From NCBI GenBank assembly GCA_050179685.1, contig JBFXEW010000005.1, positions 13,911 through 77,910 of the forward strand: a stretch of 64,000 bases of DNA, given 5' to 3'. The stretch's first letter is position 1; each line of letters begins with the position of its first letter. This DNA comes from Salinivirgaceae bacterium (GTDB lineage Bacteria; Bacteroidota; Bacteroidia; Bacteroidales; SZUA-534). Of the stretch, positions 32,482-64,000 are shown in pieces. Position numbers and translations under genes: made by a program. Below the pieces are notes generated by a model that saw only the letters and a program-made list of their open reading frames with translations, made no database searches and had not been told where the DNA came from.

Positions 32482-33417
32482 TTACCTTGGCCCCATAAAC
32501 CTATCTCCGTTAAAATGAATCATGTGTTCAGGAAACTCCATTATCCAAACTTCGGTATCCCATGCAATCTCAGTAGTATGCTTTTTAAATTCTGAAAAAT
32601 TGGGAAATGCAGAAACATAAATCTTTCCTGCTATACAATCTTTTAGAAATTCTTCCAATTCAATAATTCTTTTCGGAGTCATTGGGCCATGTGAAGTTAC
32701 AGCCTCAATTAGATATAGCCAGTTCTTTGATTCGTCATAAATTACAATGTCTGGCAATTTGCTATGTTCTGTAATCGGAATTCCAATCCTTTCAAGAGTT
32801 TCTTTGTCTAAGTGTAAATCCTTTTTCTCTGTGTCTCCTACATAAAGCAAAGTAGAACCTTGTGCAAATCGTGAAGCAAACTCTTCCACAACCGCAGCCT
32901 GAACCTCATTGTGCTTTCCTGGTGATAGCATTAAAACGCTACCATCTGTAAGTTTTAAAGGAACTCTGGACATCTTACGGTCTTTACTGTACTTCTCCTT
33001 CAATCCTCCAATTTTAGAAGCAAAATTTTCTGATGCTTTTTTCCAATTTCTAGTTCTGTAAGTTTTTATCGTCTCAAGTGCTATCTCAGAAATTGCATAA
33101 TGTGCACGTGGACTATTTACCGGTAAATCAGGAATATCAGGATTATAATCAGCTATACCCGCTTGTACAAATTGGTGCAGAACTTGTCTCCTAAAGGTTT
33201 CTCTGGTATTTGGAGCATATTCTTTTTGATAGTTCTCAGAAATAAAATTCATTATTCCTTTGGAAACACCGTGACTTTGCCTGAAAGCTTTCGACCACTT
33301 ATCATTTTCTTTGATGTTACATAAAGCAAGTAAAGTATAACCAGAAATTTCATTTTGTTGAGCATCAGGCAACCCCAACTCTCGCAAAATCACCTGTGCT
33401 TCTTGAATTTTTGACAT
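32482..33417 (-). CDS. type II restriction endonuclease, BsuBI/PstI family
   Basis: 311 aa. The N-terminus AQVILRELGLPDAQQNEISGYTLLAL and YAPNTRETFRRQVLHQFVQAG match my memory of the BsuBI/PstI REase family. It is adjacent to an N6-A methyltransferase. Confidence 0.7.
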   Translation of the reverse strand: MSKIQEAQVILRELGLPDAQQNEISGYTLLALCNIKENDKWSKAFRQSHGVSKGIMNFISENYQKEYAPNTRETFRRQVLHQFVQAGIADYNPDIPDLPVNSPRAHYAISEIALETIKTYRTRNWKKASENFASKIGGLKEKYSKDRKMSRVPLKLTDGSVLMLSPGKHNEVQAAVVEEFASRFAQGSTLLYVGDTEKKDLHLDKETLERIGIPITEHSKLPDIVIYDESKNWLYLIEAVTSHGPMTPKRIIELEEFLKDCIAGKIYVSAFPNFSEFKKHTTEIAWDTEVWIMEFPEHMIHFNGDRFMGPR

Positions 33418-35032
33418 AAGATTTTTCTAAAAGGACTTCATTAACAATTGTATCAATAAGTTGCTTATCGGGATTTTTATGTTCTTTGATTTTATTTCCA
33501 ATTAAAACTATATCATCTAACTGCGGTATTTTAATTTGTTTTAATTCAGTTGCACCAACTTGTGTATTGCCATTAAATGTTCTGAAATAATTATCAAACA
33601 AATTGCTGCTATAAAGTGCAGAAATTCCCCAGATTTCATTTTCCGTTAAATCTCCGTTTGGACGATGTATATAATTTAAATGATTTTCAAAACCAACCAT
33701 TTCAATATCAAAATTTGATGAGAAAAATGGACAACAAACCAATCTGCTTTTATCATCTTTTGAACTAAATCGGCGAAGTAAAACATAGTTTTTATTCTTA
33801 AGCAGGACTTTTCTTGATTCTAATGAATTAACTATAAAACCTGGCTTATTACCTTTTTGTAGTGGATAAATAAATTCCATTTCTTTAATGTTATGCAACC
33901 AGATTAATGGAGATAGTGAGCCATTTATAGTGCCTTCTGTTTTTAGAAATTCAGTACACCGAAACGCAACAACTGGGCCTGTTGATATTTGAATATTGAA
34001 ATCATTCAGCGTGTTGTGCCAATTCTTGAAAATTTCAATTGTGCTAGCCTCCTTATCATTTGAAGGAATAAACAAAATCTTATCTTTTGATTTTAAATCT
34101 ATTAACGAATTGGTCTTAAAAACTTTTTCGGTTAAATTACTCAGGCCATTATTGCTTTCAGAAACTGTAATTTTTATTTCCGAATTTACCTTTTTTGTTG
34201 CACGAAGAATAATGTTTTCTTGAAGAACATTATCATTCTTGAACATTTTATTTCGGGATTCAAAGATGTGTATGTTTGAGATACTTACATCGTTGAAGAA
34301 AGATTGTCTAAAAGCTTTGAAATAATTTCCTGCCGCAAAACTTCTAGGTGTTATAAAAATTAATTCTCCGTCTTGTTTCAATAATTTCGCTGCCACGCCC
34401 ATAAACAAAGAATAGATATTAGGTTGCCCATATACTAAATCTTTTGCTGCAATTGCTCGTTTGTCGTTTTTAGAGATTTTAAAATATGGGGGATTAGAAA
34501 TTATATAATCGTACTGGTTTACTTTTTCAAATCCAAATAACGTTGACACATTGAATGCATTTGAGTTTTCAAGGACAAAATCAGTTCGATTGATTTGGTA
34601 TTTTAAATCGATATTTTTCTCTGCTAGCCAGGAAGCTAAAAAATCAATTACTTTTTGAGTAAGCGTTAAAACATTTTCATCTGTCTCAAATAGCGATAAT
34701 TCTATTTCCGTTATGTTTGATTTTTGTATCAGCTTTTCGATTAAAGAACATGTTAAAATTCCAGTGCCACAACCGGGGTCAAGAACTGAAATCTTACCTG
34801 ATTTTGGATCTGCTAAATTCCCCATAAAATCAGCTATCTGTTTTGGAGTAAAGAATTGTCCGTTATCTTTTTTATGTTTGTCAGATGTAGAGCATGCGTA
34901 TTCAAGTCCGATAAACTCAGCAAATTCAGAAGGTGTTTTATATTTTTCTTTTAACTCTATCATTATACAAAAGTAATCAATCTTAGGTGCGTTGGCAAAA
35001 ATTGCATTTTTTCTTTCAATTTTCATTTGCAC
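33365..35032 (-). CDS. N6-adenine DNA methyltransferase (Eco57I/PstI-methylase-like)
   Basis: 555 aa with GQFFTP, the SAM site VLDPGCGTGIL and catalytic NPPY (IISNPPYFK). It overlaps the REase start by 53 nt. The true start may be an internal Met. Confidence 0.8.
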   Translation of the reverse strand: MQMKIERKNAIFANAPKIDYFCIMIELKEKYKTPSEFAEFIGLEYACSTSDKHKKDNGQFFTPKQIADFMGNLADPKSGKISVLDPGCGTGILTCSLIEKLIQKSNITEIELSLFETDENVLTLTQKVIDFLASWLAEKNIDLKYQINRTDFVLENSNAFNVSTLFGFEKVNQYDYIISNPPYFKISKNDKRAIAAKDLVYGQPNIYSLFMGVAAKLLKQDGELIFITPRSFAAGNYFKAFRQSFFNDVSISNIHIFESRNKMFKNDNVLQENIILRATKKVNSEIKITVSESNNGLSNLTEKVFKTNSLIDLKSKDKILFIPSNDKEASTIEIFKNWHNTLNDFNIQISTGPVVAFRCTEFLKTEGTINGSLSPLIWLHNIKEMEFIYPLQKGNKPGFIVNSLESRKVLLKNKNYVLLRRFSSKDDKSRLVCCPFFSSNFDIEMVGFENHLNYIHRPNGDLTENEIWGISALYSSNLFDNYFRTFNGNTQVGATELKQIKIPQLDDIVLIGNKIKEHKNPDKQLIDTIVNEVLLEKSYVKNSRSTGDFARVGVA

Positions 35033-36769: not shown

Positions 36770-37502
36770 ACGTATTAGCCCGCTCCGCTTCCAGCACCAA
36801 TGGTTGTGTGTCTTCGCTCCACTCCTGCTGCTTAAACCCGCCGTAAGCTTTTAGCTTTACAAAACCTGCTGCTGAAATTTGCGTCATCAATTCATCCTTT
36901 TTTAATGGCAACAATAGCTGACTGTTTTCAATAACCCGTCCGCTGGCTTTTAGGGTAAGGCGGGTACGGAAATCGATACGATGTTGCTCCTTTAGGTATT
37001 CGTACCCGCGCACAAATTCAATGTCGGCATTATCAATAGTGGGCAAACCGTTTATCTGCCGGTTTAAAATACGGTCGTAATTAATTAGTTGAAGGAGTAG
37101 TCGCCCTCCCGGTTTCAAAACCTGAAAAGCCTGACGGGCAAACACGCCTACGGCATCCTCATCGGGCAAATGCACCAGGGTATTGCCAAAGCACAGCACC
37201 GCATCGAAGCTTTGTGATTGAAAACGGGCGTCGAGCTCCAGCATGTTTTGCACGTAGTAGTTTACCGAGTCAGAGGTATTTCCGGCTACCGCACGGGCTA
37301 CCATCTCCGGGTTTAAATCGATGCCTGTAACCCGATGCCCCTGCTGAGCCAATGCCTGGGCCAACTGTCCCGTTCCACAGCCCACATCGAGCACATCAAG
37401 GTTCCCCGATGCCTGCGTAGCTGTTGCTATAAAATTCACCTGCTCCCGATTAAGCGGAAATATGGCCTCGTAAGCCTCGGCAATGGAAGTATAAAAGTTC
37501 AT
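36768..37502 (-). CDS. class I SAM-dependent methyltransferase
   Basis: 244 aa with motif I VLDVGCGTGQLAQALAQQGHRVTGIDL. Visibly GC-richer than its neighbours. Confidence 0.8.
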   Translation of the reverse strand: MNFYTSIAEAYEAIFPLNREQVNFIATATQASGNLDVLDVGCGTGQLAQALAQQGHRVTGIDLNPEMVARAVAGNTSDSVNYYVQNMLELDARFQSQSFDAVLCFGNTLVHLPDEDAVGVFARQAFQVLKPGGRLLLQLINYDRILNRQINGLPTIDNADIEFVRGYEYLKEQHRIDFRTRLTLKASGRVIENSQLLLPLKKDELMTQISAAGFVKLKAYGGFKQQEWSEDTQPLVLEAERANT

Positions 37503-37660: not shown

Positions 37661-37800
37661 AATGTCGTTTAGTTAAGCAGACTTCACCCTCCGCCCTTCG
37701 GGCACCTCTCCGCCGCGGCGGAAGGACTAGCTCTGTTCCATCGTTGCAGGTATCCCCTTGAGGGGATTATAGGGGTGAATTTCTTTAACTAAACGACATT
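37661..37800. mobile_element. 140-bp element bounded by perfect 16-bp inverted repeats, nested inside a TGTTAAT array (MITE-like or long-stem RNA)
   Basis: AATGTCGTTTAGTTAA (37661-37676) is the inverted repeat of TTAACTAAACGACATT (37785-37800). The interior has GCCC-TTCG-GGC (37693-37703), the 14-bp palindrome TCCGCCGCGGCGGA (37709-37722) and ATCCCCT-TGA-GGGGAT. Confidence 0.4.
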
Positions 37801-37856
37801 AATTGTTAATTGTTAATTGCTAATTGTTCATTGTTAATTGCTAATTGTTAATTGTT
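37801..37856 (-). repeat. TGTTAAT/TGCTAAT heptad array (module A) containing the symporter stop codon
   Basis: Eight consecutive 7-mers. The symporter stop TAA is the complement of 37848-37850. Confidence 0.85.
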
Positions 37857-39305
37857 CCTGGCCGGCTTTATCAGCAAGGTACTAATCACGGCAGCTGCCA
37901 AAGCTACAAAAAAGGTAAGCAAACGCGAGGTAATTTCTTTATCCATACCACTGCTTATCCAGATAATGGTAAAAGCCAGTCCGCTGATTATGGTGATAAT
38001 AACGGCAATGCCATGGTAACGCTTCCAGAACAGGGTTAACAAAATAACCACCGAAAAGGTGCCCCCGATACCTGCCCATACATAACTCACCAACGAATAT
38101 ATCAGGGTGGTTTTTCCGAAATAGGCTATGCTTAAGGCGATGATAGCAATTAACCCGGTAATGAGGCGCGAAAACAGCAGCGCCCGCTTTTGAAAAAAGG
38201 CCTTCCCGAAAAGGGGTTGCAGCAGGTTATCGGTCAGCTCGGTGGCTGAAAGAATTAGCAGGGAATCGGCTGTCGATATCATGGCAGCAATGGCTCCGGT
38301 AATCAGAATAGCTGCTATGACCGGAGGAAAAATGGTTAACAGCACCGAAGGCATCACCAGTTCACGATCGGTCAATCCCTCCGGACCGAACAGGGCCAGC
38401 CCTATCCATCCAATACTTAGTGCACCCAGGTAAGCCACCAGTGTCCAGACAATGCCTACATTTCGTGCCTTTTTGGCTTGCCGGGCATCCTTAATGGCCA
38501 TAAAACGCATGCTTAGCTGAGGTTGACCACCCAGGTAACCAAAAAACCAGGAGAATCCGCCCACCAGGGCAACACCTGCGGTAAAGCCCTGCAATCCGCC
38601 GCTTAAGGAGGTGTATTCGCTTCCGGCCTGATGCAAGGCCTGCGAAATATTTGTAGCATACAGGTCGGGATGATTGGCCAGGTAAATAAAGCCAACAATG
38701 GGACCGGCTACCAGGGTAATAATCATCATCAGGGCTTGAATCACATCGGTATAAACCACACTCATAAAGCCCCCATAAATGGTGTAAGGCACAATAATGG
38801 CAGCGGTAATCAGCATGCCCGTTTTGGCATCGATGGCAAACATGGTGTTCAGGGTTTTTCCCCCTCCTAAAAACTGGGCACCCACATAAAAGAAAAAGAA
38901 AAACACAATGGTTGCGCTGCCTATCATACGGATGTATTGCTCCACCTCGCCATGTTTGCGGGCAATAAAAGCGGTAAAGGTGCTTACCTGGTATTTTTCG
39001 GCTGCATCGCGCAAGCGCCAGGCAATAAGCGCCCAGGCCGTAATAATACCTGTCACACAGCCCAGGGCCGTCCATATTTCGAGCAGTCCGGTGGCATAAG
39101 CTGCTCCGGGCAGTCCCAGCAAGGCCCACGACGATTCGCCCGTGGCACGCTCCGATAAGGCTGCCACCCAGCCGGGCAGTTGACGGCCTGCAATGGCGTA
39201 ATCGGCACTGTTTTTAACTTTTCGTCCCTGGTAAATGCCCCAGGCTATAAGCAGCGAGAGGTAGGTAACCATTACCAGCAGCAGTTGGGTGTTTTGTAGT
39301 TCCAT
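37848..39305 (-). CDS. sodium:solute symporter family transporter (PutP-like)
   Basis: The start at Met-18 of the ORF (39305) gives MELQNTQLLLV... The ...DYAIAGRQLPGWVAALSERATGESSWALLGLPGAAY pattern parallels PutP/SSF N-termini. About 13 TM segments. Confidence 0.85.
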   Translation of the reverse strand: MELQNTQLLLVMVTYLSLLIAWGIYQGRKVKNSADYAIAGRQLPGWVAALSERATGESSWALLGLPGAAYATGLLEIWTALGCVTGIITAWALIAWRLRDAAEKYQVSTFTAFIARKHGEVEQYIRMIGSATIVFFFFFYVGAQFLGGGKTLNTMFAIDAKTGMLITAAIIVPYTIYGGFMSVVYTDVIQALMMIITLVAGPIVGFIYLANHPDLYATNISQALHQAGSEYTSLSGGLQGFTAGVALVGGFSWFFGYLGGQPQLSMRFMAIKDARQAKKARNVGIVWTLVAYLGALSIGWIGLALFGPEGLTDRELVMPSVLLTIFPPVIAAILITGAIAAMISTADSLLILSATELTDNLLQPLFGKAFFQKRALLFSRLITGLIAIIALSIAYFGKTTLIYSLVSYVWAGIGGTFSVVILLTLFWKRYHGIAVIITIISGLAFTIIWISSGMDKEITSRLLTFFVALAAAVISTLLIKPARNN

Positions 39306-39596
39306 ACGTTGCTTTGTTTTAGGCAAACTAAGATAAGAAATTTCTGTTTGGTACAAAAAGACTTGCTGGTTGTTGGTTTTTAGAGATTAGACTTTAGACA
39401 TTAGACTAAAGACTTAAGACCAGAGACTTGAGATTAGAGATTAGAGACTAGAGACTAGAGACCAGAGACTAGAGACTAGAAACCAGAATCTTGTTAACTG
39501 CTTACTCACTTTTCACTTTTCATTATTCACTTTTCACTTTTCACTATTCACTATTCACTTTTCACTATTCACTTTTCACTGTTAATTGTTCATTGC

Positions 39597-39979
39597 TTTT
39601 AGGCTGAGGATTTCGAACTGCTGCCTGTGGACTGTGGACATGAAAGACCAACCCTCCGGGTTGAACAATAATAGCCGTAGGTAAAACCTACGGATTGATA
39701 ACCCACCAAGCCCGAACCCTGCAAGGGTTCAATAAATGCAAGATGTTTTGGAATCTTCGTAGCGTTTTCTGTGGACTGCCGACTATTGGCTACCGGCTGC
39801 TGGCGGTGCATGACAGACAGGTATTCCATGGCAAATTATTGCTTGCACCGCTTTTTGATTTGCATTCGCTAATTCTACCGACCTTCAACCCCTCCGGGGT
39901 TTTTGTATGTCTTACTACCTATTAATAATTATTAATTAGTTTTGCCGAATACTACCAACCAGGAACTGCTTGAAATCAG
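39597..39979. ncRNA. repeat core copy 1, candidate structured RNA (strand unresolved)
   Basis: Perfect hairpins at 39650-39662, 39675-39693, 39714-39730, 39803-39851 and 39887-39901 (+TTTT). No credible CDS. Confidence 0.3.
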
Positions 39980-40095
39980 TATATAGACATTAGACTAGAG
40001 ACTTGAGACTAGAGACTAGAAATCAGAATCTTGTTAACTGCTCACTCACTTTTCACTTTTCATTATTCACTATTCACTGTTAATTGTTCATTGCT

Positions 40096-40480
40096 ATTTG
40101 GCTGAGGACTTTGAACTATTGCCTTTGGGCTGTGGACATGAAAGACAAACCCGGAGGGTTGAACAATAATAGCCGTAGGTAAAACCTACGGATTGATAAC
40201 CCACCAAGCCCGAACCCTGCAAGGGTTCAATAAATGCAAGGTGTTTTGGAATCTTCGTAGTGTTTTCTGTGGACTGCCGACTATTGGCTACCGGCTGCTG
40301 GCGGTGCATGACAGACAGGTATTCCATGGCAAATTATTGCTTGCACCGCTTTTTGATTTGCATTCGCTAATTCTACCGACCTTCAACCCCTCCGGGGTTT
40401 TTGTATGTCTTACTACCTATTAATAATTATTAATTAGTTTTGCCGAATACTACCAACCAGGAACTGCTTGAAATTAGTAT
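40096..40480. ncRNA. repeat core copy 2, candidate structured RNA (strand unresolved)
   Basis: Same hairpin set as copy 1. Substitutions cluster in the first ~60 nt. Confidence 0.3.
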
Positions 40481-40596
40481 ATAGACATTAGACTAAAGAC
40501 TAGAGACTAGAGACTAGAAACCAGAAACCAACTGCGTACTCATTATTCACTTTTCACTATTCACTATTCACTATTCACTGTTAATTGTTCATTGCT

Positions 40597-40854
40597 TTTA
40601 GGCTGAGGATTTCGAACTGCTGCCTGTGGACTGTGGACATGAAATACAAACCCGGAGGGTTGAACAATAATAGCCGTAGGTAAAACCTACGGATTGATAA
40701 CCCACCAAGCCCGAACCCTGCAAGGGTTCAATAAATGCAAGATGTTTTGGAATCTTCGTAGCATTTTCTGTGGACTGCCGACTATTGGCTACCGGCTGCT
40801 GGCGGTGCATGACAGACAGGTATTCCATGGCAAATTATTGCTTGCACCGCTTTT
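40597..40854. ncRNA. repeat core copy 3 (truncated/diverged after 40854)
   Basis: Matches copies 1 and 2 up to CTTGCACCGCTTTT, then is replaced by other hairpins (CCCCGGG-TTCACA-CCCGGGG 40873-40892; AAACCC..GGGTTT 40904-40920). Confidence 0.3.
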
Positions 40855-40993
40855 AACCGGATAAAATACATTCCCCGGGTTCACACCCGGGGCTATTATA
40901 ATGAAACCCCTTCAGGGTTTTCGCCTTATTGTCGTAAGATGATTTGATTGAAGATTAATGATTTTCAATTATAATCCGTGAGAACTTCGTCGT

Positions 40994-41048
40994 TTTTGAT
41001 ATTCGATATTTGGTATTTGATTTTTGTTCATTGATAATTGCTAATTGC
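40994..41048 (-). repeat. heptad arrays (modules A and D read on the minus strand) just downstream of the OmpA-operon terminator
   Basis: + strand GATATTC GATATTT GGTATTT GATTTTT, then GTTCATT GATAATT GCTAATT. This is the reverse complement of the A-D arrangement at 63631-63715. Confidence 0.8.
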
Positions 41049-41078
41049 CTGATGCTGGCAGAAGACTCGAATCCTTAC

Positions 41079-41107
41079 AAAAAAAGGGAGCACCTTGCGG
41101 CGCTCCC
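41079..41107 (-). terminator. rho-independent terminator of the 41902->41134 operon
   Basis: On the minus strand GGGAGCGCC-GCAA-GGTGCTCCC is followed by TTTTTTT, 27 nt after the stop at 41134. Confidence 0.75.
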
Positions 41108-41133
41108 CCAAAATGGAATTCCCTACTGCTTTG

Positions 41134-41376
41134 TCATTCCAATTTTTCCTTCAATTCTTTTTCCAGTTTATTAACTTGTTGCTGCAACGAACTAAGCTGG
41201 TTTTTCAGTTTATCGTTTTCGTCCTGAATTTCGTTTAACTTTTGAGTGTAGATGGCCTTGTAATAAAAATAAGCAGTCAGGTAACCAATAAGTGCAGCTA
41301 CCAACAGTAGTATCACCATCTCGATAATAGACCCGGTGCGGGTTTGTGCCAAAATTATAGTCAATGTATTCATCAT
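41134..41376 (-). CDS. small single-pass membrane protein with C-terminal coiled coil
   Basis: 80 aa with TM segment IIEMVILLLVAALIGYLTAYFYY, then the heptad-like NEIQDENDKLKNQLSSLQQQVNKLEKELKEKLE. It starts 5 nt after the OmpA-like gene ends. Confidence 0.5.
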   Translation of the reverse strand: MMNTLTIILAQTRTGSIIEMVILLLVAALIGYLTAYFYYKAIYTQKLNEIQDENDKLKNQLSSLQQQVNKLEKELKEKLE

Positions 41377-41380
41377 GTCT

Positions 41381-41902
41381 TTATTTTAAGGTTATTTCTG
41401 CTCTTCTATTGTCAGCCCGCCCTTTTTGGGTGGCATTATCAGCTATGGGTTCAGTCTCTCCTTTCGACGAAATCTTGATACGTTCGGGAGCCAGTCCCTG
41501 GCCTTCGAACCAGTCTTGTACCGCCTGTGCCCTTTCCAGTCCCAGCTTTTGATTGTAAGCCTGGGTTCCAACGGCATCGGTGTGACCTACAATATCGAGG
41601 TAGCGTGTCGCTTCCTCATCCAGGTAGGGCTTTACTTTGTTCAGGTAAAGTTCCAACGCTGCTTTCGATTTGAGTACCGCTTTATCAAAATCGAAATGTG
41701 TTAGCTCTGTCCGGGTAATCTCATCGGTTAATGGTAGCTTTTCAGGTACTTGTACCACCAGGGTGTCTTTTACAAGCGGTTCGGCTTGAATGGCAGTGGC
41801 TTCAGGAATATCAATTCCTGTCTTTATTTTATTTACATACCACCAGGTGGCCAGCCATGCCCAAAGACAAAACACCAGAAATCCGGTAATTAAAATTCTC
41901 AT
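41381..41902 (-). CDS. OmpA/MotB-family peptidoglycan-binding protein with N-terminal TM anchor
   Basis: 173 aa. The segment VGHTDAVGTQAYNQKLGLERAQAV...NRRAEITLK is the OmpA_C-like signature. Confidence 0.8.
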   Translation of the reverse strand: MRILITGFLVFCLWAWLATWWYVNKIKTGIDIPEATAIQAEPLVKDTLVVQVPEKLPLTDEITRTELTHFDFDKAVLKSKAALELYLNKVKPYLDEEATRYLDIVGHTDAVGTQAYNQKLGLERAQAVQDWFEGQGLAPERIKISSKGETEPIADNATQKGRADNRRAEITLK

Positions 41903-42116: not shown

Positions 42117-42698
42117 ATGGAACCAACAAAACGCTGTGCCTGGGCCGAAAAACAGCTGGATGCCTACAAAGTTTATCACGATACCGAATGGGGCGTACCG
42201 GTGTACGACGATAAAAAACTTTTCGAATTCCTGATTCTGGAAGGTGCACAGGCTGGCTTATCCTGGCTTACCATCTTAAAACGGCGCGATGGCTACCGCA
42301 AGGCCTTTGCCGGTTTCGATGTGGAAAAGGTAGCCCGTTTCGATGCCAAGAAAGTGGAAGAGCTGATGCTGGATGCAGGCATCATACGCAATCGCCTGAA
42401 GATTGAGGCCGCTATATCGAATGCCAAAATCTTTTTAGCCATTCAAAAAGAATTCGGATCCTTTAGTAAGTACATGTGGAACTTTGTAAATGGCAAGCCC
42501 ATTCAAAATAAGTTCCAACACATTAGTGAATTACCGGCCACCACCCCGCTGTCGGATGCCATTTCGAAGGATTTAAAAAAGCGGGGTATGAAATTCGTGG
42601 GCTCCACCATAATTTACGCTCACATGCAGGCCACAGGCATGGTAAACGATCACACCACCGATTGCTTCAGGCACAAACAATTGGCAATTAACAATTAA
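42117..42698 (+). CDS. tag: DNA-3-methyladenine glycosylase I
   Basis: 193 aa with YHDTEWGVPVYDDKKLFEFLILEGAQAGLSW and C-terminal zinc-ligand residues (H..DC). Confidence 0.9.
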   Translation: MEPTKRCAWAEKQLDAYKVYHDTEWGVPVYDDKKLFEFLILEGAQAGLSWLTILKRRDGYRKAFAGFDVEKVARFDAKKVEELMLDAGIIRNRLKIEAAISNAKIFLAIQKEFGSFSKYMWNFVNGKPIQNKFQHISELPATTPLSDAISKDLKKRGMKFVGSTIIYAHMQATGMVNDHTTDCFRHKQLAINN

Positions 42699-43292
42699 CA
42701 ATGAGCAATGAGCAATGAGCAATTAACAATAAACAATGAGGTACCAGGTGACAGTCTTCAGCTTGCAGTTTACAGCCAAGGAACAATTAATAATGAGCAA
42801 TGGGCAATTAGCAATAGAACACTGAATAGTGAATAGTGAATAGTGAATAGTGAATAATGAATAAAAAAACAATGGATTAGTCGGCAGACTTCAGTTCGCA
42901 ACCTCAGATTAGCAGTAAACCCCGGAGGGGTCAGAGGTCGGTAGAATAATAGCTTTCTTCGATAATAGCGGTGCAAGCAGAAAGATTGCCATTCAAATCA
43001 AAAATACCATGCACCGCAACCAGTAAACAGCAAACAGTGGCCGTTTACAGCCAAAGAACAATTATCAATTAACAATTAACAATTATCAATTAACAATAAA
43101 CAATGAGGTACCAGGCGACAGTCTTCAGTTTGCAGTTTACAGCCAAGGAACAATTAATAATGAGCAATGGGCAATTAGCAATAGAACACTGAATAGTGAA
43201 TAGTGAAAAATAAGTAATAAATTAAGTCATGTGTCTTAAGTCTTGTGTCTTAAGTCTTAAGTCTAATGTCTAAAATCTAGCATCTAGAATCC
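42678..43292 (+). repeat. composite repeat region: heptad modules A, B, C, a 121-bp direct duplication (period 367) and a partial repeat core
   Basis: 42720-42840 matches 43087-43207 with 2 mismatches. The core fragment ~42867-43020 shares AACCCCGGAGGGGT, GGTCGGTAGAAT and the GCGGTGCA...TGCACCGC stem with the reverse complement of the 39.6-40.9 kb cores. The C-module TAAGTCT array ends 24 nt before blc. Confidence 0.9.
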
Positions 43293-62345: not shown

Positions 62346-63632
62346 ATGATAAAACAAGTATTGTTTATCGTTCTGTTGTCGGTTACCTTAGTGGTTTTTG
62401 CCTTTACGGTAAACCGGCTTTGGAAGCTATTCCGGCTGACAAAAAAAACCCCTCCGATAAAAGACTGGGGCAAACGGTTTAACCTGACGCTGGCTGTTGC
62501 CTTTGGGCAAAGCAAAATTCTTCGCAAACCACTGATTGGCTTCCTCCACGCGCTGGTATTCTGGGGCTTTCTGGTTATCACGGTGGGCAGTATCGAAATG
62601 GTTATCGATGGTGTCTTTGGTCTGGAACGAGCCTTTGCCGGCAGTGGCTGGTTTTATAAGGTAATTACCGCTTCGGGCGATGTGTTTGCCTACATCATCG
62701 CCTTAGGAATCATTGCTTTTCTGGTTCGCAGGCAGTTTATGCAGATAAAACGCTTCAGCGGCATTGAACTGAAACCCAAGAATAAGCGCGATGCGAACCT
62801 GGCGCTGGCTATGATTCTCTTTCTGATGATTTCACTTATCGGAATTAATCTGGCTTACCTGAATCAAAAGCCTGAACCGGTGCTGGGTCTTTATCCGATT
62901 TCCGGTTTATTGGCCAACTATTGGCAAATAAATCTGACCCAGGCTCATGTAGTTTTTGAAGTAAGCTGGTGGAGTCACATTCTGTTGATATTTATTTTTG
63001 CGAACTACCTGCCCTACTCCAAGCACTTCCATGTGTTTATGTCGATTCCCAATGTCTTTTTCAGTAATCTGGAACCCCTGGGAAAACTTCCTAACATGGA
63101 AGCTGTAACCAAAGAAGTTCAGTTGATGCTGGGCGGCAATGCGTTTCAGGATACCGGCGACCAGGCTCCTGCCCGCTTTGGGGTAAAGGATGTGGAAGAT
63201 GTGAGTTGGAAAAATTATATGGATGCCTTAACCTGCACCCAGTGCGGACGTTGTACCGAGGTTTGTCCGGCCAACCTGACCGGCAAAAAGCTATCGCCGC
63301 GAAAAATATTTGTGGATCTGCGGAACCGGATGAACGAGAAAGGCCTGCAACTAATTAAGAACCCGGAATACACCGACCAGAAAGCACTGGTCAGCGACGA
63401 ATACATCAGCTACGAAGAGCTTTGGGCCTGTACCACCTGCAATGCCTGTGCCCAGGAATGTCCCCTGAATATCAGTCATCCGAACCTGATAATGGATATG
63501 CGGCGGTACCTGGTAATGGAAGAAGGACGCGCTCCGTCGGGTATTAATGCCATGTTTGCCAATATCGAAAACAACGGTGCTCCCTGGCAATTCTCACCCG
63601 AAGACCGTCTGGAATGGACGAAGGGGGATTGA
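62346..63632 (+). CDS. membrane-anchored 2x[4Fe-4S] ferredoxin-domain oxidoreductase subunit (HdrD/GlpC-like; candidate ETF:menaquinone oxidoreductase part 1)
   Basis: 428 aa with ~5 N-terminal TM helices, then CTQCGRCTEVCP and CTTCNACAQECP. It directly follows etfBA. Confidence 0.7.
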   Translation: MIKQVLFIVLLSVTLVVFAFTVNRLWKLFRLTKKTPPIKDWGKRFNLTLAVAFGQSKILRKPLIGFLHALVFWGFLVITVGSIEMVIDGVFGLERAFAGSGWFYKVITASGDVFAYIIALGIIAFLVRRQFMQIKRFSGIELKPKNKRDANLALAMILFLMISLIGINLAYLNQKPEPVLGLYPISGLLANYWQINLTQAHVVFEVSWWSHILLIFIFANYLPYSKHFHVFMSIPNVFFSNLEPLGKLPNMEAVTKEVQLMLGGNAFQDTGDQAPARFGVKDVEDVSWKNYMDALTCTQCGRCTEVCPANLTGKKLSPRKIFVDLRNRMNEKGLQLIKNPEYTDQKALVSDEYISYEELWACTTCNACAQECPLNISHPNLIMDMRRYLVMEEGRAPSGINAMFANIENNGAPWQFSPEDRLEWTKGD

Positions 63633-63804
63633 CAATGAGCAATTAACAATGAGCAATTAACAATGAATAATTATCAATGAACAATTATCAAATACCAAAA
63701 AATCAAATATCAAAAATTCTCAAGTATTAAGTCTAGAATCTAATTTCTAAAGTCTAAATTCTAGTTTCTAGAAGTCTAGCAACCAGAGACAAGAGACCAG
63801 AAAC
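63630..63804 (+). repeat. heptad arrays (modules A-D-C) filling the gap between the two Fe-S oxidoreductase genes
   Basis: CAATGAG/CAATTAA 7-mers start at the TGA stop (63630), followed by CAAATAC/CAAATAT-type, TAAGTCT/AAAGTCT/AGTTTCT-type and CAGAGAC AAGAGAC CAGAAAC. The ATG lies 42 nt later. Confidence 0.85.
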
Positions 63805-63846
63805 TTAAACAATACAGTACTAAAAGAATAACCTACTAATACAACT

Positions 63847-64000
63847 ATGAATCAAATACACGTACCGGTAATGGCCGAGCTGGCCGCAGCAGGAAAAAGC
63901 CCCGATATTCTTTACTGGGTGGGCTGTGCCGGCGCCTTCGACGAGCGTTATAAAAAAGTTTCGCGCTCGTTTGCCAAGCTGCTAAACCATGCAGGGGTTA
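63847..64000 (+). CDS. (Fe-S)-binding CCG-domain protein, N-terminal part (3' end outside window)
   Basis: MNQIHVPVMAEL...ILYWVGCAGAFDERYKK is the cysteine-rich CCG-domain start typical of HdrD/GlpC-like partners. The frame is open to the window end. Confidence 0.65.
   Translation, partial: MNQIHVPVMAELAAAGKSPDILYWVGCAGAFDERYKKVSRSFAKLLNHAGV

Follow-up and report, generated by a model that had tools for sequence, protein, structure and literature searches.

What, if anything, is encoded in the 1.5 kb of DNA that separate an OmpA-like operon from a symporter gene in this Salinivirgaceae bacterium? An earlier note on the sequence proposed a novel structured RNA or a repeat locus. We analyzed the locus within the window, the whole 64,000-nucleotide stretch of DNA, and together with homologous copies elsewhere. 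The non-coding stretch is made of three tandem copies of a lineage-specific mosaic repeat that combines heptamer microsatellites with short GC-rich hairpins; it encodes no protein and does not fold as a single large RNA. The repeat-locus half of the proposal is borne out; the novel structured RNA is not, as the fold is not significant and the modules are separable.

Architecture of the tandem block

The genes flanking the block lie on the minus strand, and the symporter gene starts with an ATG at 39305. The upstream boundary of the block is a canonical intrinsic terminator that closes the OmpA-like gene and its 80-aa partner. Tandem Repeats Finder (TRF) describes 39548-40854 as one array with a period of 498, 2.6 copies, 94% matches and a score of 2360, and a repeat search of the window recovered a 300-nt repeat in three copies at 498- and 501-nt spacing. 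The window has exactly three occurrences of the anchor GGCTGAGGA, which start at 39602, 40100 and 40601. Three tandem units of ~500 bp had been claimed and are present; the periods are 498 and 501 instead of 499 and 500 because the middle anchor had been placed one nucleotide off, at 40101. Alignment reproduced two further observations: cores 1 and 2 differ at 3 positions beyond the initial ~60 nt, and core 3 tracks them up to 40854 and diverges thereafter. The block comprises the following features:

39379-39487, minus strand: heptad array CTAGTCT/TAAGTCT (plus-strand reading AGACTAG), ~15 copies, TRF periods 7/14/21; the array nearest the symporter start codon
39502-39597, minus strand: heptad arrays AATAGTG/AAAAGTG (plus-strand reading CACTATT/CACTTTT), 11 copies, found by TRF
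39581-39597, minus strand: short AACAATT-class run at the end of the preceding arrays
39597-39985, minus strand: unit 1 core, gene-sense module order S1-S2-S3/h2-S4-S5, bounded by nhmmer matches and hairpins
39986-40096, minus strand: heptad block 2, with the three classes and order of the first arrays in fewer copies
40097-40483, minus strand: unit 2 core (S5-S4-S3-S2-S1 read on the plus strand), 96% identical to unit 1 by blastn, nhmmer and alignment
40484-40595, minus strand: heptad block 3, from repeat-finder and alignment evidence
40596-40854, minus strand: unit 3 partial core, with only S5, S4 and S3; it splits from units 1 and 2 right after h2
40855-40992, minus strand: module E, beyond the span described in the earlier note; the usual neighbor of h2 in a related metagenome-assembled genome (MAG)
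40993-41047, minus strand: degenerate heptads of the AACAATT/ATCAAAT class, a short way downstream of the terminator that closes the OmpA operon (TRF; repeat family D5)
41084-41109, minus strand: canonical intrinsic terminator, an 11-bp stem followed by a T run

Hairpin modules

Module boundaries within the cores were set by nhmmer matches across the window and nine further loci (L002-L010). For unit 1 they give five modules:

39905-39985, minus strand: S1
39853-39904, minus strand: S2, the hairpin ACCCC-GGA-GGGGT plus GGTCGGTAGAAT
39803-39852, minus strand: S3/h2, consisting of GCGGTGCA, 33 nt and TGCACCGC; h2 is the 8-bp stem
39731-39802, minus strand: S4
39597-39730, minus strand: S5, with three hairpins

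All four perfect hairpins that had been quoted for the core are present at the positions given, and the core is indeed rich in such structures: five distinct perfect hairpins (stem of at least 6 bp, loop of 3-6 nt), or seven when alternative loop registers are counted, against 0.4 expected, with seven or more in 0 of 2000 dinucleotide shuffles. Stems persist from copy to copy, whereas loops and linkers drift. In this comparison 98.2% of cells are paired, compensatory pairs number three in E plus h2 and one in S5, and the linkers between hairpins are hypervariable. Reverse-complementing one 14-nt hairpin of unit 1 gives exactly the sequence of its counterpart in units 2 and 3. Two segments, TTGCCATGGAATAC in the h2 loop and GGTCGGTAGAAT, are strongly conserved though unpaired, which a purely structural stem-loop role leaves unexplained.

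These local hairpins do not add up to a single large structured RNA. Compared with shuffled sequences, the whole core shows no extra folding stability on either strand (z = -1.36 and -1.30), the order of its modules varies, and the support is for local hairpins only. The hairpins are separable modules, which syntenic strains and a second genome arrange and combine differently.

Dispersed copies and strain variation

The core had been described as unique; both its modules and the heptads recur outside the block. A fourth, diverged copy of S2-S3 lies in the window itself:

42896-43070, plus strand: S2-S3 copy (h2 at 42967-43017), found by nhmmer (E 3.6e-9), alignment and pattern match, co-oriented with its flanking genes

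A 171-nt heptad block occurs in duplicate (42685-42855 and 43052-43222; repeat family D6) and brackets this copy. A pattern search for h2 among 185,579 species genomes matched a single Salinivirgaceae MAG, at seven sites on six contigs, and a metagenome scan with the same pattern matched one short contig only. Viral contigs held no match to the Acido-Lenti-1-type (described below) or h2 patterns. The h2 loci of the MAG have no genes in common with the window. Module E adjoins S3 in L004, L006, L007, L008 (four times), L009 and L010 by nhmmer. The L008 array reads E-S3-S5-E-S3 ... S3-S5-E-S3 with a period of ~390 nt, plus one inverted GC-rich copy, and module order differs again in L006. In total, at least 20 module copies, all extragenic, are found in ~120 kb from two lineages. 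In nine of the ten intergenic regions that carry repeats, the orientation matches that of a flanking gene; one MAG locus, L005, is inverted.

Two metagenome contigs that are syntenic with the locus carry different unit content: L002 has one unit and no E, and L003 is a recombinant with a second subfamily. In at least two genomes the modules are scattered, occur in changed orders and are repeated in tandem, and the unit content of the locus varies between close strains. A fixed 1.7-kb leader or insulator, which the earlier note offered as an alternative, is weakened because related strains hold 0.8-1.1 kb of differently composed repeats at the syntenic site.

Relation to the Acido-Lenti-1 motif

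No known RNA family had been recognized in the core. An Rfam search of the whole window at gathering thresholds returned no match (other sub-threshold matches, to sroB, miRNAs and a CRISPR direct repeat, are attributable to chance). The match to a known Rfam family that the earlier note had named as refuting its proposal was nevertheless obtained in part: the module that adjoins unit 3 resembles Acido-Lenti-1 (RF01687), and a diverged and inverted copy of this motif is present in each unit. We built a covariance model, R2, from E-type copies only; with it, the two-hairpin motifs of the block are the following:

40873-40919 (40871-40922 with R2), plus strand: Acido-Lenti-1 motif in module E, right of unit 3, CCCCGGGT-TCAC-ACCCGGGG, CTATTATAATGA, AACCCC-TTC-AGGGTT; R2 74.7 bits
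39647-39695, minus strand: Acido-Lenti-1-like motif of unit 1, CCGTAGGT-TTT-ACCTACGG, linker CTATTATTGTTC, AACCC-GGA-GGGTT; R2 full length 30.5 bits, E 3.4e-6
40144-40193, minus strand: Acido-Lenti-1-like motif of unit 2; R2 36.4 bits, E 8.6e-8
40645-40694, minus strand: Acido-Lenti-1-like motif of unit 3; R2 36.3 bits, E 9.2e-8

The module E motif scores 33.6 bits (E 4e-5) against RF01687, below the gathering score of 37; four homologous MAG copies of the module exceed that threshold (43.5, 43.5, 42.6 and 40.7 bits) and five more reach 32-36.9 bits. Module E shares the published layout (Weinberg et al. 2010, PMC2864571) of an 8-bp stem with a 4-nt loop, a linker of 12-13 nt that begins with CUA, and a 5-bp stem with a UUC-type triloop. 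The in-unit copies in S5 have a first loop of 3 nt, yet align with R2 over their full length at 30.5-36.4 bits; they are too diverged for the Rfam model, which finds no match within 39590-39990 even at E<=10. The linkers of the unit 1 motif and of the motif in module E (40891-40909) form an inverted repeat, and the 3' hairpin of the unit 1 motif is loop-inverted relative to those of units 2 and 3. Acido-Lenti-1 occurs in many copies, often in tandem, with seed coordinates in Lentisphaera spaced by 74, ~110 and ~192-200 nt; here, four copies of this type lie within 1.3 kb, in addition to the MAG arrays.

The window differs from the described family in several respects. Its best copy is sub-threshold and lies just past the span of the earlier note, its host belongs to Bacteroidota while the motif is known from Acidobacteria or Lentisphaerae, the motif forms part of a larger mosaic that also contains h2, more hairpins and heptad arrays, and the wobble evidence presented below supports the strand opposite to the Rfam orientation.

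Coding potential

Open reading frames of 76-77 aa run along both strands, with similar lengths recurring in all three units, and could be read as a tandemly duplicated small protein; the copy in the recombinant L003 happens to remain in frame. The ORFs were searched against Pfam without a single family match, and word-index and HMMER searches of 5.8e9 clustered and 1.84e9 representative proteins returned no credible homologue beyond this locus itself, which was all that the word-index search found. The single protein added by the exhaustive HMMER search (P0003, E 3e-4), a tandem-repeat protein from an 836-kb contig with reverse-transcriptase and Utp14 genes, appears to be a chance match, and a spurious ORF across E-h2 of L008, used as query, gave no candidates. 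Substitutions are distributed 6/3/7 over the codon positions, the position of the stop codon shifts, and MAG copies of the region carry 1-2-nt indels and early stops. The ORFs also traverse perfect palindromes and heptad arrays. A small protein is extremely improbable, and the earlier judgment that the ORFs are non-coding is upheld by their lack of conservation, frame-breaking indels and shifting stop. A tRNA/tmRNA search was negative; the tRNA-like strings GGTCGGTAGA and GTTCGA in S2 are unsubstantiated.

Strand and transcription signals

Each unit had been proposed to be a self-contained plus-strand transcription unit. In its explicit form, every unit would be a small-RNA gene with a promoter near TAGTTTTG (39937 and 40435), a ~450-nt RNA through heptads and hairpins, and an end at AACCCCTCCGGGGTTTTT; equivalently, the block would hold tandem sRNA genes of the Acido-Lenti-1 type. 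Rfam does list Acido-Lenti-1 as an sRNA gene, and the Rfam match is oriented on the plus strand. In most copies, T-rich runs follow h2 and the 3' hairpin of the Acido-Lenti-1 motif, and these are the only signals that favor the plus strand. The TAnnTTTG match TAGTTTTG is present as described and is kept in both L002 and L003. Against its being a promoter, the window contains 84 TAnnTTTG sites against 83.3 expected, S1, in which TAGTTTTG sits, is absent from all MAG copies, and no such box lies within 200 nt on either side of h2 in 16 of 17 family copies, the one match (L006) being due to chance.

The remaining strand indicators mostly point to the minus strand, that of the flanking genes, and comprise gene co-orientation, G.U wobbles and GNRA loops. 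In E plus h2, wobbles favor the gene-sense strand by 4 to 0, and every single-sided stem change reads as an A.C mismatch on the plus strand and as G.U on the minus strand. Taken with the variable module order and the non-significant fold of the whole unit, these signals run counter to the self-contained plus-strand unit, and we regard small-RNA genes as unlikely.

Heptad arrays

The degenerate 7-nt arrays reported for the locus exist, as TRF periods of 7, 14 and 21 attest. The three heptad classes recur in other intergenic DNA of the window with their order unchanged and co-oriented with the downstream gene: read in the gene sense, the order is invariably AACAATT, AATAGTG, CTAGTCT, pointing toward the downstream start codon. 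The heptad strand is the gene strand in five of five window regions, and the arrays end 10-75 nt upstream of the ATG. Arrays of the CTAGTCT class also adjoin start codons at 37502 (minus), 43317 (plus) and 63848 (plus), and the arrays at 39502-39597 share repeat families D1 and D5 with 37.5-37.9 kb. Inside a heptad array, at 37661-37795, lies another and truly MITE-like element, which ends in 16-bp terminal inverted repeats. Copy numbers vary between strains: the CTAGTCT class has 15 copies here and ~23 in L002, and the AATAGTG class 11 here and 5 in L002.

Similar arrays (TAACTGA and others) are known from Beggiatoaceae, Cyanobacteria and some Bacteroidetes, in the last of which multi-heptamer arrays upstream of genes have been reported (MacGregor 2015, PMC4679880). 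Both sets are intergenic tandem heptamers in a single orientation relative to the downstream start codon, with several heptamer types per intergenic region; both disrupt assemblies and are not the same in close relatives. The arrays described here differ in their heptamers (AACAATT, AATAGTG and CTAGTCT), in the fixed order of three classes and in their coupling to hairpin modules.

The block could also be a dedicated, phase-variable regulatory leader or promoter region of the symporter gene, whose expression would be tuned by heptad and unit number. Start codons lie right beside arrays whose copy number changes from strain to strain, and a role in regulator binding has been proposed for heptamers just 5' of start codons (PMC4679880). 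The interval 39306-41133 contains no canonical -7 box on the minus strand, so the symporter promoter is unconventional or distant. Against such a leader, modules in the MAG also lie between convergent genes or downstream of genes (L009 and L010), they adjoin functionally unrelated genes, and syntenic strains differ in unit content. We consider a dedicated leader quite improbable.

Comparison with REP elements and mobility

An organizational parallel is with the REP/BIME elements of E. coli, Pseudomonas and others, which are short (20-40 nt) extragenic palindromes in high copy number (Di Nocera et al. 2013, PMC3733652; Nunvar et al. 2010, PMC2817692), arranged in pairs of alternating orientation with 20-200-nt spacers and with stems retained through compensatory changes. 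In REP clusters, dimers are reiterated in tandem together with flanking DNA (PMC3733652). At our locus, the minus-strand Acido-Lenti-1-like motifs face the plus-strand motif and the units repeat with periods of 498 and 501 nt; the L008 array alternates in orientation with its ~390-nt period. The differences are that the unit here is a hairpin doublet rather than a single palindrome, that the modules are interleaved with heptamer microsatellites, and that the family is so far known from just two Bacteroidota lineages. The REP tag GTAG/CGTC, which is unpaired and sits at one end of the palindrome (PMC3733652), is also absent; both 8-bp stems are instead followed by CTAT(T), or ATAG in reverse complement. 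REP elements are associated with a single-copy RAYT (Y1 transposase) that the repeats flank, and neither RAYT nor another transposase was found among 30 ORFs, from 64 kb and additional fragments, scanned against Pfam.

These features bear on the possibility that the modules are non-autonomous mobile elements, REPIN- or MITE-like, copied by a single-copy tyrosine (HUH/Y1, RAYT-like) or other transposase encoded elsewhere, the tandem array being a by-product of insertion into earlier copies. The modules sit at unrelated loci and are 70-85% identical between window and MAG; the one comparable protein pair, the lipocalins, is only 38% identical and may be paralogous. Hairpin pairs in inverted orientation, the MITE-like element within a heptad array, and the occasional proximity of Acido-Lenti-1 to group II introns (Weinberg 2010 supplement) also fit mobility. 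Missing, besides the tag and, among the ORFs scanned, a transposase, are terminal inverted repeats or target duplications bounding the units; an inverted-repeat search of 39300-41150 shows just internal palindromes and the inverted linkers of the Acido-Lenti-1 motifs. The units end at heptad blocks and shared modules, which is where homologous recombination would place their boundaries. Transposition of the units is, on balance, rather unlikely.

Proposed origin and significance

We consider it moderately probable that the block arose by local amplification of part of a mosaic intergenic repeat specific to this lineage, and that it is comparable to a REP/BIME cluster. It has two kinds of building blocks: the three ordered classes of heptamer microsatellites, and a few GC-rich hairpin modules, namely the Acido-Lenti-1-type doublet in two diverged versions of opposite orientation, h2 and some single hairpins. 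Unequal recombination or replication slippage, acting between the repeated heptad blocks and between common modules such as h2, would add, remove and swap units, and template switching inside a palindrome may have flipped one hairpin. The repeat probably acts through RNA or DNA stem-loops. The stem-loops would be co-transcribed with their neighbors, in all likelihood on the minus (gene-sense) strand. The local RNA structures so formed may dampen read-through from the OmpA-like operon toward the symporter gene, or buffer against 3'-5' decay in this interval. The heptad arrays would render the spacing and length of upstream regions hypervariable.

BOX elements of Streptococcus pneumoniae offer a further parallel, being modular, intergenic and lineage-restricted, with variable tandem sub-repeats and flanking structured modules. 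Within the Bacteroidales, the minisatellite-MITE BrickBuilt of Porphyromonas gingivalis also combines variable tandem sub-repeats, structured flanks and lineage restriction, and carries promoter activity (Klein et al. 2015, PMC4596501). BrickBuilt differs in having small terminal inverted repeats and a 23-nt repeat, and neither it nor BOX resembles the window repeat in sequence. For REP/BIME, the proposed roles are transcription attenuation and mRNA stability (PMC3733652; PMC2817692).

A bolder and improbable extension is that heptads and hairpins form a lineage-specific, genome-wide system of cis elements. A dedicated protein that binds single-stranded nucleic acid would recognize the ordered heptamer tracts, the Acido-Lenti-1-type doublets would yield tandem small RNAs or programmable insulators, and unit number, switched by recombination, would tune neighboring genes, often surface or transport genes. 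If so, the 'Acido-Lenti-1 sRNA' of Rfam would be reassigned to a REP-like class spanning several phyla.

Returning to the REP-like mosaic repeat, the analysis turns an apparently unique hairpin-rich RNA candidate into a member of a dispersed mosaic family, and so avoids its mis-annotation as an sRNA or small protein. It ties an orphan Rfam motif to a REP/BIME-style organization of alternating orientation, tandem reiteration and strain turnover, and extends the range of Acido-Lenti-1 to Bacteroidota. It also documents an ordered triple-heptamer architecture 5' of start codons that resembles the unexplained arrays of Beggiatoaceae, Cyanobacteria and some Bacteroidetes. Loci of this kind interrupt assemblies made from short reads and lend themselves to strain typing. 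Should a complete genome turn out to contain many copies, the family would provide a tractable system for studying REP-like spread without a GTAG tag or known RAYT, as well as the role of heptamer arrays.

Three tandem units of heptads and hairpins

The block at 39379-40854 consists of three tandem units of about 500 bp, each joining heptad arrays to a hairpin-rich core. Tandem Repeats Finder reported a single long-period array (39548-40854; period 498, 2.6 copies, 94% matches) along with many arrays of period 7, 14 and 21, and a repeat search of the window returned three copies of 300 nt at intervals of 498 and 501 nt. The anchor GGCTGAGGA occurs in the window at 39602, 40100 and 40601 only; the earlier note had recognized all three copies and placed the second one base too far, at 40101. 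Its reading of the cores is borne out: cores 1 and 2 differ at three positions beyond the initial ~60 nt, core 3 matches as far as 40854 and diverges beyond, and every hairpin it quoted lies where it was placed. The core holds five distinct perfect hairpins, or seven counting alternative loop registers, against 0.4 expected, and seven were reached in none of 2000 dinucleotide shuffles of the core. Both the three-unit repeat and its dense perfect hairpins are confirmed as real, and the locus is an unusual one. In unit 1 a 14-nt hairpin (39649-39662, CAACCC-TCC-GGGTT) is exactly reverse-complemented relative to 40148-40161 and 40649-40662; its counterpart in units 2 and 3 is AACCC-GGA-GGGTTG, and unit 1 differs by inversion of the three-base loop, as template switching in a DNA palindrome typically produces.

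We divided the core into five segments, reading the minus strand, and defined an added module, E, beyond unit 3. S3 carries h2, a hairpin with an 8-bp stem.

Segments of core 1, module E and flanking features
37848-39305, minus strand, sodium:solute symporter gene
39597-39730, read on the minus strand, segment S5
39731-39802, read on the minus strand, segment S4
39803-39852, read on the minus strand, segment S3/h2
39853-39904, read on the minus strand, segment S2
39905-39985, read on the minus strand, segment S1
40855-40992, module E, following unit 3
41084-41109, canonical terminator ending the 80-aa/OmpA-family gene pair
41134-41902, minus strand, genes for an 80-aa membrane protein and an OmpA-family protein

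The remainder of the window consists of ordinary chromosomal housekeeping genes. An ORF for an Eco57I/N6-methylase-type restriction-modification methylase (33365-35032), unrelated to the repeat locus, runs at its 3' end into the following minus-strand ORF (32482-33417), overlapping its start.

Protein, single RNA, promoter and transposon readings

The ORFs of the units are non-coding, as the earlier note had judged. They have no Pfam match and no credible homologue outside the locus in 5.8e9 or 1.84e9 proteins; substitutions fall 6/3/7 by codon position, the stop codon shifts, and the copies in the Salinivirgaceae metagenome-assembled genome (MAG) JBFWMB01 carry 1-2-nt indels and early stops. 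The proposal of a novel self-contained structured RNA is unsupported. The block is not one large RNA: its fold has z = -1.3 on either strand, and the module order varies. A TAnnTTTG match had been offered as its promoter and is uninformative, with 84 such matches in the window against 83.3 expected by chance. It sits in S1, a segment absent from the wider family, and 16 of 17 h2 copies have no such -7 box within 200 nt, the one exception (locus L006 of the MAG) being a chance match. On the minus strand, 39306-41133 (the 1.8 kb preceding the symporter gene) contains no canonical Bacteroidota -7 box (TAnnTTTG); the closest approach, TTAGTTTG, lies about 25 nt ahead of the ATG. In the MAG, several genes adjoining repeat arrays do have a -7 box, located 24-122 nt before the start and after the heptads. 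An ARAGORN search found no tRNA or tmRNA. The units are not MITEs because no terminal inverted repeats bound them.

A separate MITE-like element of ~135 bp (37661-37795) is bounded by perfect inverted repeats of 16 bp (AATGTCGTTTAGTTAA / TTAACTAAACGACATT) and has GC-rich hairpins inside; it is inserted within the AATTGTT heptad array that separates the methyltransferase gene from the symporter gene. It is also present in the syntenic metagenome contig L003 (4311-4455), and a 74%-identical copy lies in the MAG (L007 2825-2950, E 1e-14).

Dispersed copies of the modules

The repeat-locus alternative raised in the earlier note is correct. The same modules and heptads are dispersed elsewhere. Within the window, nhmmer detected a diverged fourth core copy at 42896-43070 (E 3.6e-9), on the strand opposite to the units and co-oriented with its own flanking genes. 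It sits between two direct copies of a 171-nt heptad block (42685-42855 and 43052-43222; 90% identity, 367 nt apart), and the unit of heptad block plus core is therefore partly tandem at this second locus.

A family-level h2 pattern, AGCGGNGCRAGC N5-9 TTNCCAT N12-20 CATGCNCCGC, has a chance expectation of zero in the window. Among 185,579 species, each represented by one genome, it matched only the MAG JBFWMB01 (seven sites on six contigs); it also matched one metagenome contig and no viral contigs. The h2-bearing MAG loci have no gene in common with the window, yet they carry modules of the S3, S5, E and S2-like kinds that are 70-85% identical, plus the same heptad classes. Locus L008 is a non-coding array of >2 kb, E-S3-S5-E-S3 ... 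S3-S5-E-S3, with a period of ~390 nt and one GC-rich copy inverted within it, and L006 has the modules in another order. At three of the six repeat loci in the MAG, the gene immediately downstream is predicted to encode a very large surface protein (L005 3626-7999, L006 5023-7998, L008 2324-3829), the types being BNR/Reelin-like, Ig-domain and IgGFc-binding; this very small sample hints that the hypervariable arrays might occupy contingency-type loci.

Acido-Lenti-1-like doublets

The window has no Rfam match at gathering thresholds. With E-value reporting, 40873-40919 (+), just beyond the region described in the earlier note, matches the two-hairpin motif Acido-Lenti-1 (RF01687) with 33.6 bits, short of the threshold of 37. 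Among the homologous E modules in the MAG, four reach 43.5, 43.5, 42.6 and 40.7 bits, and five others 32-36.9. In the 2010 seed alignment, Acido-Lenti-1 is multicopy and often tandem in Lentisphaera araneosa (spacings 74, ~110 and ~192-200 nt), with further members in Koribacter, Rhodopirellula and Geobacter uraniireducens. Its authors remarked only on an occasional proximity to group II introns (Weinberg 2010, PMC2864571). A preprint from 2026 annotates the motif in Tannerella and describes its function as little known.

A local covariance model, R2, built from 11 E-type copies only, matches the h4-h5 part of S5 full length in every unit, on the strand opposite to the E motif.

R2 matches in the three units
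39647-39695, minus strand, unit 1, 30.5 bits
40144-40193, minus strand, unit 2, 36.4 bits
40645-40694, minus strand, unit 3, 36.3 bits

R2 also matches all S5 copies in L003, a second syntenic contig (L002), and MAG loci L006, L008 and L009. The linkers GGGTTGAACAATAATAGCC and GGCTATTATAATGAAACCC are mutual inverted repeats. Together with the full-length matches on the opposite strand, they identify in every unit a diverged Acido-Lenti-1-like doublet, missed by the Rfam model alone, that faces the canonical one.

Conserved structure and strand signals

An alignment of 11 E+h2 copies contains three local helices. In gene-sense orientation (minus at the locus) these are 98.2% paired with three compensatory pairs, and all four single-sided changes are G.U; in the Rfam orientation the same four become A.C mismatches and pairing is 96.5%. 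S5 contributes a further compensatory pair, together with one U.G and one A.C. The first-hairpin loop in gene-sense orientation is GTGA or GTAA (GNRA) in 8 of 11 copies, and in nine of ten intergenic regions with repeats the repeats run in the direction of a neighbouring gene; the L005 repeat region is inverted as a whole. Against these signals, T-rich runs after h2 and the 3' Acido-Lenti-1 hairpin occur only on the opposite strand. The signals conflict, with a lean to the gene-sense strand. Stems are almost invariant and the linkers between hairpins are hypervariable; conservation extends to two unpaired stretches, TTGCCATGGAATAC (within the h2 loop) and GGTCGGTAGAAT. The latter (window 39853-39880, in S2; L008 40-80) is followed by GTTCGAT in MAG copies, and the two resemble tRNA D-loop and T-loop sequences and may be of tRNA origin.

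Ordered heptad arrays

Three heptad classes follow a fixed order in the gene direction, AACAATT-type, AATAGTG-type, CTAGTCT/TAAGTCT-type and then ATG, upstream of genes starting at 37502(-), 39305(-), 43317(+) and 63848(+), and heptad strand equals gene strand in five of five window regions. Because the same series precedes other genes, each unit is one heptad block plus a core. The series at 63600-63847 (AACAATG/AGCAATT, ATCAAAT, AGTCTAR, ACCAGAR) runs up to start codon 63848, whose gene extends past the window end. Multi-heptamer forward arrays upstream of start codons, of unknown function, are known in Beggiatoaceae, Cyanobacteria and a few Bacteroidetes (MacGregor 2015, PMC4679880).

Strain variation

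The repeat locus itself is unstable, differing between strains in unit content and heptad numbers. L002 and L003 are syntenic with the window, with flanking genes 93-98% identical. L002 has one unit only, without E, and upstream of the symporter carries 5 GTGAAWA and about 23 TCT-class heptads, against 11 and 15 in the window. L003 is recombinant: a unit truncated in S4 passes into heptads, then a second-subfamily unit, then back into S5. The stems of this subfamily differ by compensatory changes (GCGGGGC/GCCCCGC vs GCGGTGC/GCACCGC), as does a hairpin (GCCCC-AGC-GGGGC vs ACCCC-GGA-GGGGT). This GC-richer S2-h2 subfamily, spliced into the orthologous locus at L003 1991-2214, is also found in the MAG, at L006 4422-4473 and, in inverted orientation, at about L008 700-832. 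L001, an independent assembly of the window strain, breaks within the heptads. Unit-number differences may be exaggerated by short-read collapse; the junctions are genuinely different.

A probable REP/BIME-like cluster

We compared the block with the anatomy of REP/BIME clusters (Di Nocera et al., PMC3733652). Both have short extragenic palindromes whose partners are oppositely oriented and 20-200 nt apart, clusters tandemly reiterated with flanking DNA, compensatory stem changes and strain-specific turnover. The REP tag GTAG/CGTC is missing here, where the tail is CTAT, and we therefore liken the block, which would work like a REP/BIME cluster, to that class without assigning it. Among 30 ORFs scanned against Pfam, none was a RAYT. 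Amplification to three units is most readily explained by unequal recombination or by slippage, which would have involved the heptad blocks and the modules they share the locus with; unit 3 breaks off exactly where h2 ends. We infer that the RNA stem-loops may attenuate read-through or stabilise transcripts, and that the heptads would render the upstream region hypervariable. The kind is already known, from REP/BIME-like repeats, the Acido-Lenti-1 motif and heptamer arrays; new here are their particular combination and the phylum.
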